From an uncultured Chloroflexia bacterium (lineage in GTDB: Bacteria > Chloroflexota > Ktedonobacteria > Ktedonobacterales > JADMIN01), in assembly GCA_963718915.1 (NCBI GenBank), contig CAVRAI010000007.1, positions 330,001 to 362,000 on the forward strand: DNA of 32,000 nt. Reading direction: 5' to 3'. The first letter of the stretch is position 1, and each line of letters begins with the position of its first letter. The notes beneath the pieces were generated by a model that saw only the letters and a list, made by a program, of their open reading frames with translations, was not told where the DNA came from and did not search any database. Below, piece by piece: positions 6,141-22,234 of this stretch. Both the position numbers and the translations under genes were made by a program.

Positions 6141-6311
6141 TCAACTCGTGGTGGTGCCTTTGTCCTCGGGAGCCAGAACGGTGGGGTTCCGCTTAGCGCG
6201 GGGCCATGCGAATCGCGCCATCCCGTAGGCGCTTATGGCTTCACTGTAGAGGTTCGTGCGCTCGACACACTCACCAGGGATCTCGGTGCAGTGCTCGATG
6301 AACGCTCCCAT
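6141..6311 (-). CDS. hypothetical small ORF (56 aa) upstream of arsR
   Basis: ATG 6311 is preceded by GAGGG. The product is 'MGAFIEHCTEIPGECVERTNLYSEAISAYGMARFAWPRAKRNPTVLAPEDKGTTTS'. Third-position GC is high in the first half. The second half reads through the 31-nt repeat in another frame. It falls below the 60-aa ORF-track threshold. Confidence 0.2.
   Translation of the reverse strand: MGAFIEHCTEIPGECVERTNLYSEAISAYGMARFAWPRAKRNPTVLAPEDKGTTTS
6193..6223 (-). repeat. 31-nt orphan copy of an SDR-gene 3' end (right boundary of the ars cluster)
   Basis: The sequence is 'ttagcgcggggccatgcgaatcgcgccatcc'. On the minus strand it reads '..[10 protein letters not shown]', with a TAA stop 4 codons upstream. 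All five nucleotide differences from the live SDR 3' end are synonymous or stop-for-stop. Confidence 0.7.
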
Positions 6312-11992: not shown

Positions 11993-12760
11993 CTAGCGCG
12001 GCGCCATTCTTATCGCGCCATCCAGCCGGATCGTCTCGCCGTTGAGCATCGTGTTCTCGACGATAGACTGCACCAGCGCGGCGTACTCCTCCGGGCGGCC
12101 CAGCCGGGGCGGGAACGGCACCTGCTGGCCGAGCGACTGACGCGCTGGCTCTGGCAGCCCGGCGAGCATCGGCGTGTCGAAGATACCCGGCGCGATGCTC
12201 ATCACGCGGATGCCATAGCGCGCCAGCTCGCGCGCAATCGGCAGTGTCATGCTGACGACGGCGCCCTTCGAGGCGGAGTAAGCCGCCTGACCAATCTGCC
12301 CATCGAAGGCCGCGACCGAGGCCGTGTTGACGATGACGCCGCGCTCGCCCTCGGCGTCTGGCTCGTTGCGCTGCATCGCGTCGGCTGCCAGGCGGATCGA
12401 GTTGAAGATGCCGACGACGTTGACCTGAAGCACTTTCGCAAAGCGGTTGAGGTCGTGCGTGGTATCTTTGCCCAGCACTCTCTCGGCAATGGCGATGCCC
12501 GCGCAATTCACTACAATACGCAGCCCGCTGCCTAGCGAGGTCGCCGCCTCCACCGCCGCGCGCATCGAATCGTCGCTGGTGACATCAGTCGCTACGAAAC
12601 GCGCCTTCTCGCCCAGTTCCGCTGCCAGCGCCTCGCCCGTCTGCGCGTTGAGGTCGGCAATGACCACCCGCGCGCCCGCGTCCGCCAGCCGCCGCACCGT
12701 CGCCGCGCCCAGTCCCGACGCGCCGCCCGTCACCAGCGCGCCTGTTCCCGCTATTTGCAT
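11993..12760 (-). CDS. short-chain dehydrogenase/reductase, 3-hydroxyacyl-CoA dehydrogenase-like
   Basis: Cofactor motif '[12 protein letters not shown]' (TGxxxGxG), catalytic 'YSASKGAV' (YxxxK), C-terminus '..[12 protein letters not shown]'. Confidence 0.9.
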
Positions 12761-12849
12761 GATCGGCTCTCCTTCGTCGTTGCATCACCGTGAACGTGAA
12801 AGCGGCGCCCGCGCCGCCATCCAACCATACACCGCGAGACATGGCAACA

Positions 12850-12879
12850 TCAACACGGCGTATACAGGGGCAATATAAT
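12850..12879 (+). promoter_or_regulatory. candidate promoter (TCAACA-18 nt-TATAAT) for the small membrane-protein gene
   Basis: Perfect TATAAT at 12874-12879 and a 4/6 -35 box at 12850-12855. Confidence 0.35.
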
Positions 12880-12924
12880 ATCGTTGGCGGCTCATCATGC
12901 GCTTTGCCATGGAAAGGTAAATTC

Positions 12925-13194
12925 ATGCGTTCGGGATTCTTCTCATCTTATGTGCCGTGGGTTGGCGCGTTCTTCCTCGCGATTGGCCTGCTCTCGTTCT
13001 TCACCCACGCGCCGTTGCTAGGGGGCGCGCTGCTCTGCATCGGCGTGGCGTTCCTGTTGCTGGGCAACTCGGCGCAGGCATGGCCGACGCTGCCGCTCTG
13101 GCGCAAGATCGGCTCGGCGGTTGGCATCATCGTGGGCCTGGTGTTTCTCGTCACCAGCCTGATCACAACGGCTTTTGAGGCAGCTGGCGACTGA
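12925..13194 (+). CDS. small (89 aa) three-TM membrane protein, unknown function
   Basis: ATG 12925 follows GGAAAGG. The product is 'MRSGFFSSYVPWVGAFFLAIGLLSFF..LLCIGVAFLLLGN..VGIIVGLVFLVTSLI'. The ORF-track start at 12790 is an upstream extension. Confidence 0.55.
   Translation: MRSGFFSSYVPWVGAFFLAIGLLSFFTHAPLLGGALLCIGVAFLLLGNSAQAWPTLPLWRKIGSAVGIIVGLVFLVTSLITTAFEAAGD
13058..13176 (+). repeat. 119-nt direct repeat, copy 1 (the functional 3' end of the small membrane-protein gene)
   Basis: Ungapped hand alignment to 14676-14794 gives 107/119 identical positions. Confidence 0.85.
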
Positions 13195-14674: not shown

Positions 14675-14797
14675 CTGCTGGGCAACTCGGCGCAGGCGTG
14701 GCCGACGCTGCCACCCTGGCGCAAGATCGGCTCGGCGGTTGGCATTATCGTGGGCCTGGCGTTTCTCGTCGCCAGCCTCATCACCAGCGGTTTCTGA
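14675..14797 (+). pseudogene. orphan 3' fragment (40 codons plus stop) homologous to the small membrane-protein gene
   Basis: It reads 'LLGNSAQAWPTLPPWRKIGSAVGIIVGLAFLVASLITSGF*' and is immediately preceded by an in-frame TAG (14672-14674). Of the 11 codons that differ from copy 1, 6 are synonymous. Confidence 0.7.
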
Positions 14798-14864: not shown

Positions 14865-14903
14865 CAGAGCTATTGTGTGTGCCAGGAGCGCTGGAGTATT
14901 GCG

Positions 14904-16394
14904 ATGAAACCGCTTGTTGCTATTGTTGGACGCCCGAATGTGGGCAAATCGACCCTGTTCAATCGGCTCGTGGGCGAGCGTCTCGCGATTGTCGAGGATC
15001 TGCCTGGCACGACGCGCGACCGGCTCTATGCCGACGCAGAGTGGAATGGGCGCGTCTTCTCGCTCGTGGATACCGGCGGGCTGGAATTAGGCGCAAGCGA
15101 GGACATCACCGCGAGGGTTGCGGCGCAGGCGCAGCTGGCCATCGAAGAGGCCGATGTGATCGTCCTGCTGGTGGATACTAAGTCGGGAATTACTGAGGCC
15201 GACGCCGAGGTGGCTGAGATATTGCGGCGCTCGGGCAAGCCGGTGGTGCTGGGCGCGAACAAAGCGGATAACCTCACCCGCCGTCAGGAGGCTGTCGAGT
15301 TCTATTCGCTTGGTTTGGGCGAGCCAATCACGCTGGCCGCCAACTCCGGCACCGGCACCGGCGACCTGCTCGATGCAATTACTGAGCATCTGCCGCCCGC
15401 CGAGGAAGAGGACGAGGCGGCGAGCAATGGTATCCCGCGGCTGGCGATTGTCGGCCGGCCCAACGTCGGCAAATCGTCGCTGCTCAACGCCATCGCCGGG
15501 GCGGATCGCGTCATTGTCAGCGATATCCCCGGCACGACACGCGATGCGATTGACACCGAGGTGGAGTACAAGGGCCGCCGCGTCACGCTGATCGATACGG
15601 CGGGCATCCGGCGGCGCGGGCATATCGGCCCCGGCGTCGAGAAATACAGTGTTTTGCGCGCCGACCGCGCCATCGATCGCTGTGATGTCGCGGTGCTGAT
15701 GATCGACGCGGTGGAGGGCATCACCGCGCAGGATACACACATCGCGGGCTACATCAACGAGGCGGCCAAGGGCATCGTCATCGTCATCAACAAGTGGGAC
15801 ATCATCAAAGAGCGCCGCCGCGAAGCCGAGATATGGGCCGACCCCGATGTGCCGATTCTGCCCAGCGAGAATGTGGACCTGGCCGCGCTAGAGGTACGCG
15901 ACGCCGAGGCGTATATGGACGAAATGCGCGAGAAGCTGAAGTTTGTGCCGTACGCGCCGCTGGTCTTTGCCGCGGCCAAGACGAAGTACCACGTCAACAA
16001 CATCCTCGACCACGCGCTACGCATCAACGATACGCGCTCGATTCGCGTGCCGACGGCGCAACTGAACGAGATTGTGCGCGACGCGGTGCAGCGCCATCAT
16101 CCGCCGAGCTCGCAGGGGCGGCCACTGCGCATCTTCTACGTGACGCAGGCCGAGACGAATCCGCCCACGTTCGTCTTCTTCGTCAACGACCCGGAGTTGC
16201 TGCATTTCTCCTATCGCCGCTATCTGGAGAACCAGTTGCGCAATGTCTTCAGCTTCGAGGGCACCGCGATCCGGCTCCAGTTCCGCGCCCGTACCACCGA
16301 CCGCGGCGAGGACGACGAGAAGAAAGGCAAAGCCAAGCCGCGTCCAGGATCGAAGTATACAGGCAAACGCCCCGCGACGAGATCGCGACGGTAG
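14904..16394 (+). CDS. der: ribosome-associated GTPase Der/EngA
   Basis: Two tandem GTPase domains, 'GRPNVGKSTLFN..DTGG..NKAD' and 'GRPNVGKSSLLN..DTAG..NKWD', are followed by a KH-like C-terminal domain and a Lys/Arg-rich tail. ATG 14904 is preferred over the ORF-track start at 14877. Confidence 0.95.
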   Translation: MKPLVAIVGRPNVGKSTLFNRLVGERLAIVEDLPGTTRDRLYADAEWNGRVFSLVDTGGLELGASEDITARVAAQAQLAIEEADVIVLLVDTKSGITEADAEVAEILRRSGKPVVLGANKADNLTRRQEAVEFYSLGLGEPITLAANSGTGTGDLLDAITEHLPPAEEEDEAASNGIPRLAIVGRPNVGKSSLLNAIAGADRVIVSDIPGTTRDAIDTEVEYKGRRVTLIDTAGIRRRGHIGPGVEKYSVLRADRAIDRCDVAVLMIDAVEGITAQDTHIAGYINEAAKGIVIVINKWDIIKERRREAEIWADPDVPILPSENVDLAALEVRDAEAYMDEMREKLKFVPYAPLVFAAAKTKYHVNNILDHALRINDTRSIRVPTAQLNEIVRDAVQRHHPPSSQGRPLRIFYVTQAETNPPTFVFFVNDPELLHFSYRRYLENQLRNVFSFEGTAIRLQFRARTTDRGEDDEKKGKAKPRPGSKYTGKRPATRSRR

Positions 16395-16479
16395 GGGCAG
16401 GAGCAGGTTCGCGGAATATACGGCTTCACCGATTGCCTGGAATACTTCGACGTGAGCGAAAGCAGAAATAATCGAGCTT

Positions 16480-16670
16480 CGCGGCATGATGTACTTTTAC
16501 CATGTACGACGGACACGGGCATTGCGGTGGGGTGAGCAAGCCGGAGCGTAAACGCTTCGGCGAATGGGATTGGGAGGCGGAAAATTCGCCGTAGCATTCA
16601 TGCTACAGTCTCCCTCGCCTACCACAACGTAGGGTGTTCCGAAGAAAAAGTAAAAGCACATCATGCCGCG
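16480..16670. repeat. hairpin-ended ~190-nt repeat element, copy A (candidate structured ncRNA or MITE-like element)
   Basis: The terminal arms 16480-16516 and 16634-16670 are inverted repeats; the outer 21 nt are complementary with one mismatch. The core shares identical 28-nt and 25-nt blocks with copy B, including the hairpin GTAGCA-TTCA-TGCTAC (16591-16606) and the stem CGGCGAAT / ATTCGCCG. Confidence 0.75.
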
Positions 16671-16770
16671 GCTAATCCCCTTTTGTGCGACACTCGCTCT
16701 TATAAAGAAGGGATACGCGCGAGTCTGGATTTTCCGTAGGTCTTCAGCCTGTGGCCTGGTAGCTACACGA

Positions 16771-16800
16771 AATCGGCTACCTCGCCGCGAGTAACCGATT
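16771..16800 (-). terminator. hairpin at the methyltransferase stop codon (candidate terminator)
   Basis: On the minus strand, AAUCGGUUAC-N10-GUAGCCGAUU forms a 10-bp stem with one G-U pair, followed by UUUCGUGU. Confidence 0.3.
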
Positions 16801-17620
16801 AGTTCGGCTGGCTCGCCGTGATGGCGAAGAGCATCGGCAGGGTGTTCGCTGGTGTGGGCCAGCGCCACCAGCCATCGTCGCCTTGCGCCAGGCAGGAAAA
16901 CCGCTGATAGTGCGCCAGCGGAAACTCATCGAGGCGCTCGATGCGCAGCCCCGCCTGAATCAGCGCGTTCACAACCTCGCCCAGGCTATAGCGCCAGATG
17001 TAGACGGACTGCGGCGCGTCCGTCGCGGCCTCCTCCGAATCCGGCAGTCCGCGCATCTCCTCAACCTGCGGCTCTGCGGAATGGAAGTACGAGCCGTGGA
17101 CGCGAAAGCTCATGCCATCCGAATCCACAGACTCCAGCATCATTGCGCATGGATGCATCTCAACCAGCAGGAACGTTCCGCCAGGGCGGACGTAGCGCGC
17201 GGCAATCGCGGCCCAGCGCGACAGATCGGGGAGCCAGCAGAGCGCGCCATACGAGGAAAAGACGATGTCGAACTGCTCATCCAGCACAGCGGGCAAGTCG
17301 TAGAGATCGCTGCGGAGGAATTGGGCGGGTACCCCCGTTTCGACGGCCAGTGCGCGCGCCTGAGCGATGGCAGCGTCCGAGATATCGACGCCAGTGACAC
17401 CTGCGCCGAGACGCGCCCAGGAGATTGTGTCGCTCCCCATGTTGCATTGCAGGTGCAGCAGGGTTCGCCCGCGCACGTCGCCGAGCGCATCCCGCTCGAT
17501 GGAGCGCAGTGTCAGCCCACCTGCGCGAACGGTCGCCACAGCGCGATGGTGATCCGACTCCAACTGAGTCAGCGTCATCGCGTTCCAGAGCGCCCGGTTT
17601 GATGCGAGATAGTCGGTCAT
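16799..17620 (-). CDS. class I SAM-dependent methyltransferase
   Basis: 273 aa. Motifs include 'LLHLQCNMGSDTISWARLGAGVTGVDISDAAIAQA', 'FDIVFSSYGALCWLPD' and 'VRPGGTFLLVEMHP'. Confidence 0.85.
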   Translation of the reverse strand: MTDYLASNRALWNAMTLTQLESDHHRAVATVRAGGLTLRSIERDALGDVRGRTLLHLQCNMGSDTISWARLGAGVTGVDISDAAIAQARALAVETGVPAQFLRSDLYDLPAVLDEQFDIVFSSYGALCWLPDLSRWAAIAARYVRPGGTFLLVEMHPCAMMLESVDSDGMSFRVHGSYFHSAEPQVEEMRGLPDSEEAATDAPQSVYIWRYSLGEVVNALIQAGLRIERLDEFPLAHYQRFSCLAQGDDGWWRWPTPANTLPMLFAITASQPN

Positions 17621-21794: not shown

Positions 21795-21984
21795 GCCTTC
21801 TGATGCAGTTTTAGCATGTGCGACGGACACGGGCATTGCGGTGGGGTGCGCAGGCCGGAGCCTGAAGACCCCGGCGAATGGGCCAGAGAGGGCGGGAAAT
21901 TCGCCGTAGCATTCATGCTACGGCCCGCCTCGCCCACCACGACGTGCGGTGTTCGGCGTACATAGTAAAACCACATTATAAGGC
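21795..21984. repeat. hairpin-ended ~190-nt repeat element, copy B
   Basis: The arms 21795-21830 and 21949-21984 are 36 nt, ungapped, with 27 Watson-Crick-compatible plus 3 G:T-compatible positions. The core contains the extended hairpin GCCGTAGCA-TTCA-TGCTACGGC (21903-21924). Confidence 0.75.
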
Positions 21985-22234
21985 CATGTATAGGGCATCC
22001 TCCCGCCCGTGAACATACCTGGCAGCGCCATCGCGGGTTTTCTGAGTGTCGTCACCAGCCGTCCGCAACTTACCAGGCTGATGCGCCGCGATTTCTCTGG
22101 TACATGGGATATCTTAATCGCTATCGCATGCGCTACTGGCTTGCCAGACGTCTAATACATCAGAAAGAGCAATACGCGTACATTGCAATGCTGTCAGTGG
22201 CGGCGCCACAAGTCCGCGAGGAGCGTTTCACACG

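Follow-up and report, generated by a model that had tools for sequence, protein, structure and literature searches.

A probable gene-less miniature of a Y1 transposon of the IS200/IS605 type in Ktedonobacterales, inserted within a REP-like hairpin

In insertion sequences (ISs) of the IS200/IS605 group, the transposase TnpA binds sub-terminal hairpins on single-stranded DNA (ssDNA), and guide tetranucleotides set the positions of cleavage (PMC6006769). A circle of ssDNA is excised, and insertion proceeds without target duplication, with a preference for the lagging-strand template (PMC6006769). Two other kinds of repeats also involve tyrosine transposases: REPINs, which are hairpin-forming doublets of repetitive extragenic palindromic (REP) sequences and depend on a Y1 transposase associated with flanking REPs (PMC3116915), and TIRtrons, which are tyrosine transposase genes located between long inverted repeats, with copies of the repeats dispersed elsewhere (PMC3733652). 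Throughout this study, comparisons with REPINs and with REP-associated tyrosine transposases (RAYTs) refer to Bertels & Rainey 2011 (PMC3116915), Nunvar 2010 and Ton-Hoang 2012, and those with TIRtrons and their transposases (TIRYTs) to Di Nocera et al. 2013 (PMC3733652). Here, we analyzed a non-coding element that is present in two copies (A and B) in a 32-kb stretch of DNA from an uncultured Chloroflexia bacterium (hereafter the window), and compared it with relatives on metagenome-derived contigs (L008 to L046). Sequence comparison makes it quite likely that this element is a gene-less miniature of a small IS200/IS605-type (Y1 HUH) transposon of Ktedonobacterales. We favor such a mobile origin because the arms of the element are homologous to those that enclose a transposase gene (tnpA), one orthologous site is available in both filled and empty forms, no target duplication accompanies the insertion, and the target is itself a hairpin of the kind that flanks tnpA. 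Strong folding as ssDNA, the lack of coding capacity and the lack of an Rfam family give further support.

Copies A and B are 81% identical over approximately 179 nucleotides (nt), as detected by BLAST (E=1.5e-43) and also by MAFFT and a repeat search. This agrees with an earlier note on this DNA, which had recognized a shared non-coding element at 16480-16670 and about 21795-21984. The two identical blocks that it had pointed out, one of 28 nt (16507-16534 and 21821-21848) and one of 25 nt (16582-16606 and 21897-21921; block 2), are indeed present and separated by a 1-nt indel in the alignment of A and B. The outer inverted repeat of 21 nt with a single mismatch and all inner hairpins were likewise found where they had been placed. 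The general architecture proposed in the note, a multi-hairpin core within a closing helix, did not hold: the minimum-energy fold of the minus strand is one long imperfect hairpin in both copies, and the element is thus a near-palindrome. When compared with dinucleotide shuffles, RNA folding gave z-scores of -6.6 and -9.6 for the two strands of copy A and -6.4 and -5.5 for those of copy B, and the values for DNA folding against shuffles were -5.3 and -5.1.

No coding capacity was found in the element. A search of 5.8 billion protein clusters gave no relative of a 71-aa open reading frame (ORF) that crosses copy B, and the ORFs over the element are most likely artefacts, as the earlier note had concluded from the small indels. 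A small conserved peptide was considered as well and ruled out, given that both copies have the same nucleotides throughout the 28-nt block, that no bias toward synonymous changes is seen outside it, and that the 1-nt indel shifts the frame. Two short plus-strand ORFs (16502-16594 and 21816-21965) begin with the same M(Y/C)DGHGHCGGV, and their frames part after this indel.

The parent of the element was revealed by a 20-mer from block 2, which located two metagenomic contigs, L011 and L012, in a JGI metagenome scan (two true copies). L012 contains a diverged copy with 71-73% identity that is interrupted by the contig end. In L011, one arm of the element is situated immediately upstream of a 131-aa ORF, which encodes a Y1 transposase of the IS200/IS605 family (Pfam Y1_Tnp, E=1e-25). 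This protein scored 81.7 bits against the NCBIfam IS200/IS605 equivalog (cutoff 55) and failed the NCBIfam RAYT model (REP_Tyr_transpos), with 38.9 bits against a cutoff of 80. Its homologs are all 131 aa in length, are mostly annotated as Ktedonobacterales where a source is named, and have kept both NHVH, the HUH motif, which is intact in P0142 and P0139 among others, and AYIRNQ, the motif of the catalytic Tyr. The nearest solved structures are those of ISDra2/Deinococcus TnpA; in the search of the Protein Data Bank, TnpA proteins of ISDra2 and IS608 were matched, and the E. coli RAYT was not. Five exact TnpA sequences were also examined by exact-protein look-up, and each of them occurred in one genomic context only, across 4-24 metagenomic contigs.

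Both ends of the transposon can be seen in the contigs that encode the homolog P0142 (L030-L039), in which the gene is located between two arms of about 90 nt that are complementary to each other at 86 of 87 positions. The two halves of copy A (positions 19-108 and 123-211 of 16460-16690) match these arms left to left and right to right of tnpA, with 75-77% identity. Thus, the window element corresponds to two such arms joined without the gene. With the arms joined directly, a single strand folds into one long hairpin, which is a REP doublet in the REPIN sense. Eleven arms, taken from the window, L011, L012, L030, L031 and L036, were aligned and yielded a consensus composed of TGATG, 3 nt, TTTCAC, about 9 nt, CCGAACACC, about 8 nt, GTGGNGGGCGAGCAGG, the hairpin CCGTAGCATGAATGCTACGG and CGAATGG. 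A hidden Markov model (HMM) built from these 11 arms detects arms at E=1e-17 to 1e-24, and it found exactly four in the window, all of them from A and B. Solo or dimer copies of the arms are present in the window, in L012 and in L030 (1933-2066).

Some other features of the transposase loci were observed. The tnpA segment of L030 (4868-5488), when compared with L031 (1-643) and L036 (317-965), has opposite orientations relative to the AMP-ligase gene among samples of one study; it looks invertible by recombination between the arms, and many contigs of this locus end in an arm. The transposases of L011 (430-825) and P0121 (L026-L029) have Asn in place of the first HUH His (NNVH or NNAH), and four residues are present in duplicate in P0121 (SYHFSYHF); this branch has probably lost its catalytic activity. 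A second gene-less architecture was detected at L011 165-345 (also in L026-L028) and L030 1900-2066 (equivalent to L031 3440-3600), where a single arm has in front of it the stub GGCGAA(G)TGG together with a REP-like hairpin (CTTCGCGGC(A/C)TGAA(T/G)GCCGC.GGCTAA) that is intact and occupies the would-be apex. In addition, L011 108-127 matches the 28-nt block (block 1), and this match was discarded as a chance one; the segment appears to lie in a His-rich C-terminal tail of the gene upstream, whose counterpart in the homologous locus L027 is annotated as cation-efflux (ZT_dimer).

The insertion of copy A can be followed by comparison with L040, a contig of sample ERZ27264292, whose Der protein is 94% identical to that of the window and whose nucleotide sequence is 88% identical from within der to position 16489. 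At the orthologous site, L040 has an intact 18-nt palindrome, AACTTCGCGGCATGA^ATGCCGCGGCT (hairpin CGCGGCATGA^ATGCCGCGGCT), whereas the window has CGCGGCATGA, then the 173 nt of 16490-16662 exactly at the position marked ^, and then ATGCCGCGGCT. The junction is not shiftable, and no target duplication was observed at this one compared site. A search for loci lacking the element, as the earlier note had recommended, provided a clean empty site. Since the palindrome is intact in L040 without the element, the outermost CGCGGCATGA / ATGCCGCG of copy A represent a separate short target hairpin. What copy A has in common with copy B, and what the empty site lacks, is 16490-16662; the outer ends of the previously proposed extent belong to the target. 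In L041, both the palindrome and the element are missing.

Further examination of the flanking sequences linked this target to the transposase genes. The joined flanks of copy A, CGCGGCATGAATGCCGCGGCTAA, are identical at 23 of 23 positions to the pair of hairpins found in inverted orientation on either side of tnpA in L013-L015. The tail GGCTAATCC is common to the hairpins beside tnpA in L013, L016, L030 and L042; those of L016 and L042 have other stems with this same tail. The arms' sub-terminal hairpin shares its loop with the tnpA-flanking hairpin CGCGGCATGAATGCCGCG, from which it differs by two compensated changes in the stem, and it has a CGAATGG tail; in L046, tnpA is bordered by hairpins with this CGAATGG tail. 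An 18-nt unit (GCGTGCTGGGAGGGCRRG) is also repeated about five times in tandem in L046 (300-400), upstream of a tnpA homolog and among several hairpins with a GGCGAA tail.

Copy B is missing from the corresponding region of L008/L009. Its flanks, CCTTCTGA and ATAAGG, rebuild a small hairpin with the loop CTGA^AT, and by analogy with copy A it would have been inserted in this hairpin. In L033/L036, a tnpA-bearing element abuts the arm of another copy inside the hairpin loop of that arm (GTAGCATGA|TGCGG). TGA precedes the outer end of the arm in six of six cases (ATGA three times, CTGA, TTGA and GTGA), with left and right being indistinguishable in most copies as the arms are inverted repeats. 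The two flanks of copy A are inverted and not direct repeats of each other, and the same is true of copy B. The sequences at these junctions suggest that short palindromes are preferred as targets, with insertion at N-TGA^AT in their loops, and that the REP-like hairpins beside the transposase genes are among them.

In the proposed mechanism, a Y1 transposase encoded elsewhere in the genome would bind the sub-terminal hairpins on ssDNA, such as the lagging-strand template, and cut both ends of the element to release a single-stranded circle, which would be re-inserted without target duplication. Excision of copy A would join CGCGGCATGA to ATGCCGCGG and generate the circle junction CATC|TG. Insertion into loops would give rise to elements nested within hairpins. 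Mobilization of an arms-only element in trans by the Y1 transposase is presumed by analogy with described elements, and so are the single-strand chemistry and the exact cleavage positions.

Several points weigh against the assignment to a mobile miniature. The mobilizing enzyme should be resident in the host genome, as we infer from relatives; in the 32-kb window itself, tblastn detected no Y1 transposase, as expected for an element that would be mobilized in trans, and the earlier note had remarked that no RT gene lies nearby. Only two copies, 81% identical, are present in the window, and nothing hints at a recent burst. A and B may be decaying relics that are no longer mobile, since their arms are 72-76% complementary, whereas the tnpA-bearing element reaches 99%. 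Canonical IS200/IS605 members are without long terminal inverted repeats, which makes the family atypical for this group. With regard to insertion, the L040 contig stops 11 nt past the junction, so that the right flank is confirmed for the first 11 nt only; no empty site was found for copy B; and the hairpin-loop target rule is drawn from few junctions.

Other explanations of the element were also assessed. A relic of a transposon could now act in cis, as a bidirectional transcription barrier or as a hairpin that stabilizes the 3' ends of the der and methyltransferase mRNAs; such a role would not conflict with an origin from a transposon, and the two readings differ only in what the element does today. 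The position of copy A between the convergent der and methyltransferase genes, and that of copy B downstream of a GYD-domain gene, would suit this role, as would the high stability of the hairpins, and REP sequences have been reported to stabilize mRNA and to terminate transcription (PMC6006769, PMC3733652). However, no U-tract terminator consensus is present, and relatives manage without the element at this site (a 65-nt spacer in L041 and a short hairpin only in L040). We therefore consider a current cis-acting function unlikely.

The earlier note had offered a choice between a structured non-coding RNA (ncRNA) and a non-autonomous hairpin element, of which the second is upheld by the tnpA arms and the empty site. 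An ncRNA gene family would produce a discrete transcript of about 190 nt that acts via its multi-hairpin fold, and the likeness to transposon arms would then be secondary. It is true that the predicted RNA folds are very stable on both strands, that the 28-nt and 25-nt blocks are perfectly kept between the copies, and that a consensus fold of three copies retains 39 pairs, three of which show double changes. However, Rfam yielded no match for the whole window at the gathering score and noise only (E>0.1) for both copies at E<=10, and scans for sigma-70-like promoters and intrinsic terminators around both copies, on either strand, identified none. The strand preference is inconsistent, the more stable fold being that of the minus strand in A and that of the plus strand in B. 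The compensatory changes that had been proposed between A and B also turned out to be weak. The pairing of GGTGGG with CCTACC in one copy and CCCACC in the other is a one-sided change from G-T to G-C, and only one internal compensated change was found in total, whereas 22 differences are one-sided and leave the pair open in one copy or both; covariation between A and B is thus essentially absent, and the alifold covariation term for three sequences is unfavorable (+0.78). The low arm complementarity of A and B looks like decay of an inverted repeat and not like upkeep of an RNA fold. Moreover, homology to the transposon arms accounts for the conservation, and the same intergenic site in close relatives is without the element. 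One hairpin shows a swap from G-C to C-G (GCCGGAGCG/CGCTTCGGC in the window and GCCGGGGCC/GGCTCCGGC in L012), as expected for a DNA hairpin that is recognized by a protein. Taken together, an ncRNA gene is very improbable. An ordinary miniature inverted-repeat transposable element (MITE) of the DDE type, with terminal inverted repeats recognized as double-stranded DNA and a direct target-site duplication created on insertion, would fit the long inverted ends and the small size and was among the options named in the earlier note, but it is highly improbable since the one comparable empty/filled site shows no duplication, the flanks are inverted repeats, and the sole gene found between homologous arms encodes a Y1 HUH transposase.

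Searches of other collections produced no additional copies. The block 1 20-mer, GGACACGGGCATTGCGGTGG, had seven matches in GTDB representative genomes, all unrelated and none a true copy; four of the seven carry one and the same run, CCAGGACACGGGCATTGCGGTGGT, which we presume to be a conserved fumarate-hydratase-like coding motif. Block 2 had no match in viral contigs, copy A had none in plasmid and phage collections by BLAST, and the tail motifs are not over-represented within the 32-kb window. The description of the element as unassigned therefore remains correct with respect to Rfam, plasmids and phages, but it is now possible to place the element with a transposase family. The coordinates of all features are listed in Table 1.

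Table 1. Features of copies A and B and of their surroundings in the window
Feature	Position	Strand	Remarks
der/engA	14877-16394		Left neighbor of copy A
Left half of short REP-like target hairpin (TTCGCGGCATGA)	16478..16489	+	Continuous with right half in L040; joined halves 23/23 identical to tnpA-flanking hairpins of L013
Copy A proper, 173 nt, TGTAC...CACATC	16490..16662	.	Two inverted arms of ~80 nt and an 18-nt apex; non-autonomous; missing at orthologous sites of L040 and L041
Left-arm variant sub-terminal hairpin GCCGGAGCG-TAAA-CGCTTCGGC, then GAATGG tail	16540..16561	+	Variant also kept in L012
8-bp stem CGGCGAAT/ATTCGCCG around 18-nt loop	16558-16591		Present as described in the earlier note
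Apical loop (GGGATTGGGAGGCGGAAA)	16566..16583	+	Place of the transposase gene in autonomous relatives
Right-arm REP-like sub-terminal hairpin GCCGTAGCA-TTCA-TGCTAC, preceded by ATTC	16588..16609	+	In all arms; most conserved part of the family
Perfect hairpin GTAGCA-TTCA-TGCTAC	16591-16606		Within the right-arm hairpin
Right half of REP-like target hairpin and conserved tail (ATGCCGCGGCTAATCC)	16663..16678	+	
Class I methyltransferase	16799-17620		Convergent to der; right neighbor of copy A
Copy B left flank (CCTTCTGA)	21796..21803	+	With right flank rebuilds small hairpin GCCTT-CTGAAT-AAGGC
Copy B, 174 nt, TGCAG...CACATT, non-autonomous	21804..21977	.	Both arms match the arm HMM, E=2.5e-21 and 3.8e-17
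Copy B REP-like sub-terminal hairpin (GCCGTAGCATTCATGCTACGGC)	21903..21924	+	
Copy B right flank (ATAAGGCC)	21978..21985	+	

The closest Der homologs belong to Ktedonobacterales (Chloroflexota), the best identity being 94%. One of the two closest relatives on long contigs is L009 (Der 94% identical), which comes from the same metagenome-assembled genome as L042 (GCA_036406495.1). Among close relatives, the spacer between der and the methyltransferase gene is a hot spot of variation (window 16395-16800 compared with L008 11498-12840, L040 3050-3168 and L041 7021-7086): it is 65 nt long in L041 and carries a short hairpin in L040, the window has both hairpin and element there, and L008/L009 have a TIR_2/TPR gene of 330 aa together with several small palindromes. 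TIR-domain genes were also observed beside der in L010 and beside tnpA in L016. L010, a relative with 80% identity, contains a solo tnpB (15669-16778; OrfB_IS605 / Cas12f1-like TNB) about 4 kb downstream of der, and more ISs (DDE_Tnp_1, rve) upstream of der.

Besides the element, two other repeats were noted in the window. A direct repeat of 118 nt with 91% identity is present at 13058-13175 and 14676-14793; its first copy forms the 3' end of a small membrane-protein ORF (12790-13194), and its second copy, just upstream of der, looks like a partial duplicate or pseudogene fragment. A 31-nt repeat (2224-2254, 6193-6223 and 11993-12023) was evaluated as a REP family and ruled out, because it encodes the shared C-terminal ..AIRMAPR* of three minus-strand reading frames. 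An ORF of 255 aa is listed for one of these frames, and the other two are without a listed ORF of at least 80 aa; we assume that the three are paralogous dehydrogenase-like genes.

A full-text search of the literature collection used here found no description of a REP/REPIN-like system in Chloroflexota (Ktedonobacterales). Our analysis replaces a candidate new structured RNA by a testable assignment, namely a transposase-dependent hairpin repeat, and points to a REP/REPIN-like system in this phylum that would be driven by an enzyme of the IS200 type and not of the RAYT type. The filled/empty pair offers a clean case of one palindrome having received another in its loop. Should loop targeting prove to be the rule, it would explain the growth of nested palindromes and REP clusters, and the 131-aa enzyme with defined hairpins would make a simple in vitro system for studying target choice by Y1 transposases. 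For annotation, it should be kept in mind that ORFs across such elements are most likely artefacts and that Ktedonobacterales assemblies break at the arms.

A broader and more speculative proposal is that a minimal class-1 (IS200-type) Y1 transposase of Ktedonobacterales has independently adopted the lifestyle of RAYTs. Its genes would each be present once, at a stable position between inverted REP-like hairpins, and the dependent short hairpins and doublets of about 175 nt would spread by nesting in one another's loops (TGA^AT), which would amount to a convergent, second origin of the REP/REPIN-RAYT arrangement. We regard this scenario as possible but, on the present sequences, rather doubtful. 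If it is true, the hairpin-loop target rule may be one that has not been described for IS200/IS605 elements.

When the family is compared with known systems, its resemblance to REPINs and RAYTs lies in the arrangement of the repeats. The two inverted REP-like hairpins (16540-16561 and 16588-16609) fold together into one hairpin, arms (L030-L039) or hairpins (L013-L015, L042 and L046) flank the Y1 gene in inverted orientation in the metagenomic relatives, the miniature copies are intergenic, and excision or insertion involves no duplication. The occurrence of each exact TnpA at one genomic place across metagenomic samples, as seen in the exact-sequence look-up, is also reminiscent of RAYTs. In contrast to RAYTs, the transposase is short (131 aa) and IS200-like, with YIRNQ in place of Y..NP (PMC6006769), and fails the RAYT model. 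The arms are about 90 nt long, compared with about 25-40 nt in REPINs; the GTAG tag is missing, and the conserved tags are instead GGCTAATCC and CGAATGG, 3' of the hairpin; and the host belongs to Ktedonobacterales (Chloroflexota). With TIRtrons, the family shares a Y1 gene between long inverted repeats (L030-L039) and gene-less repeat copies elsewhere, some of which are self-complementary dimers. However, TIRYTs are RAYT-like and usually longer, with extra (helix-turn-helix) domains and Y..NP (PMC6006769), whereas the protein found here consists of the core domain only, and the GGGGWSAS motif is present in the left arm of copy A only and is not conserved among the arms.

With IS200/IS605 elements and palindrome-associated transposable elements (PATEs), the family has in common the transposase family itself and the fact that its ends are homologous to both ends of a Y1 tnpA element. 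Sub-terminal hairpins, insertion without target duplication and gene-less miniatures are further points shared with such elements (IS608 and ISDra2), and the TGA next to the arm ends may correspond to the conserved tetra- or pentanucleotide that they keep at the left flank. The differences are that the ends of classical elements are unrelated and lack long inverted repeats, whereas the arms here are complementary at 86 of 87 positions; that the target appears to be a hairpin loop and not a bare tetra- or pentanucleotide; and that the transposase genes look single-copy and fixed, not multi-copy. REP palindromes are also targeted by IS1397, ISKpn1 and ISPpu10, which, like ISPpu9, are placed in other families and are not known as IS200/IS605 members. 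ISPpu9 has been described as inserted into REPs (PMC8450116). These ISs and the window element have in common an insertion within a repetitive extragenic palindrome, but the insert in the window is a Y1-type miniature, and its target hairpin is tied to the same transposase family. The element is thus placed outside the RAYT clade by the protein test, outside canonical IS200/IS605 by its long arms and outside DDE-type MITEs by the lack of duplication, and it is filed here as a new family of the REP/REPIN- or PATE-like kind that depends on a Y1 transposase.

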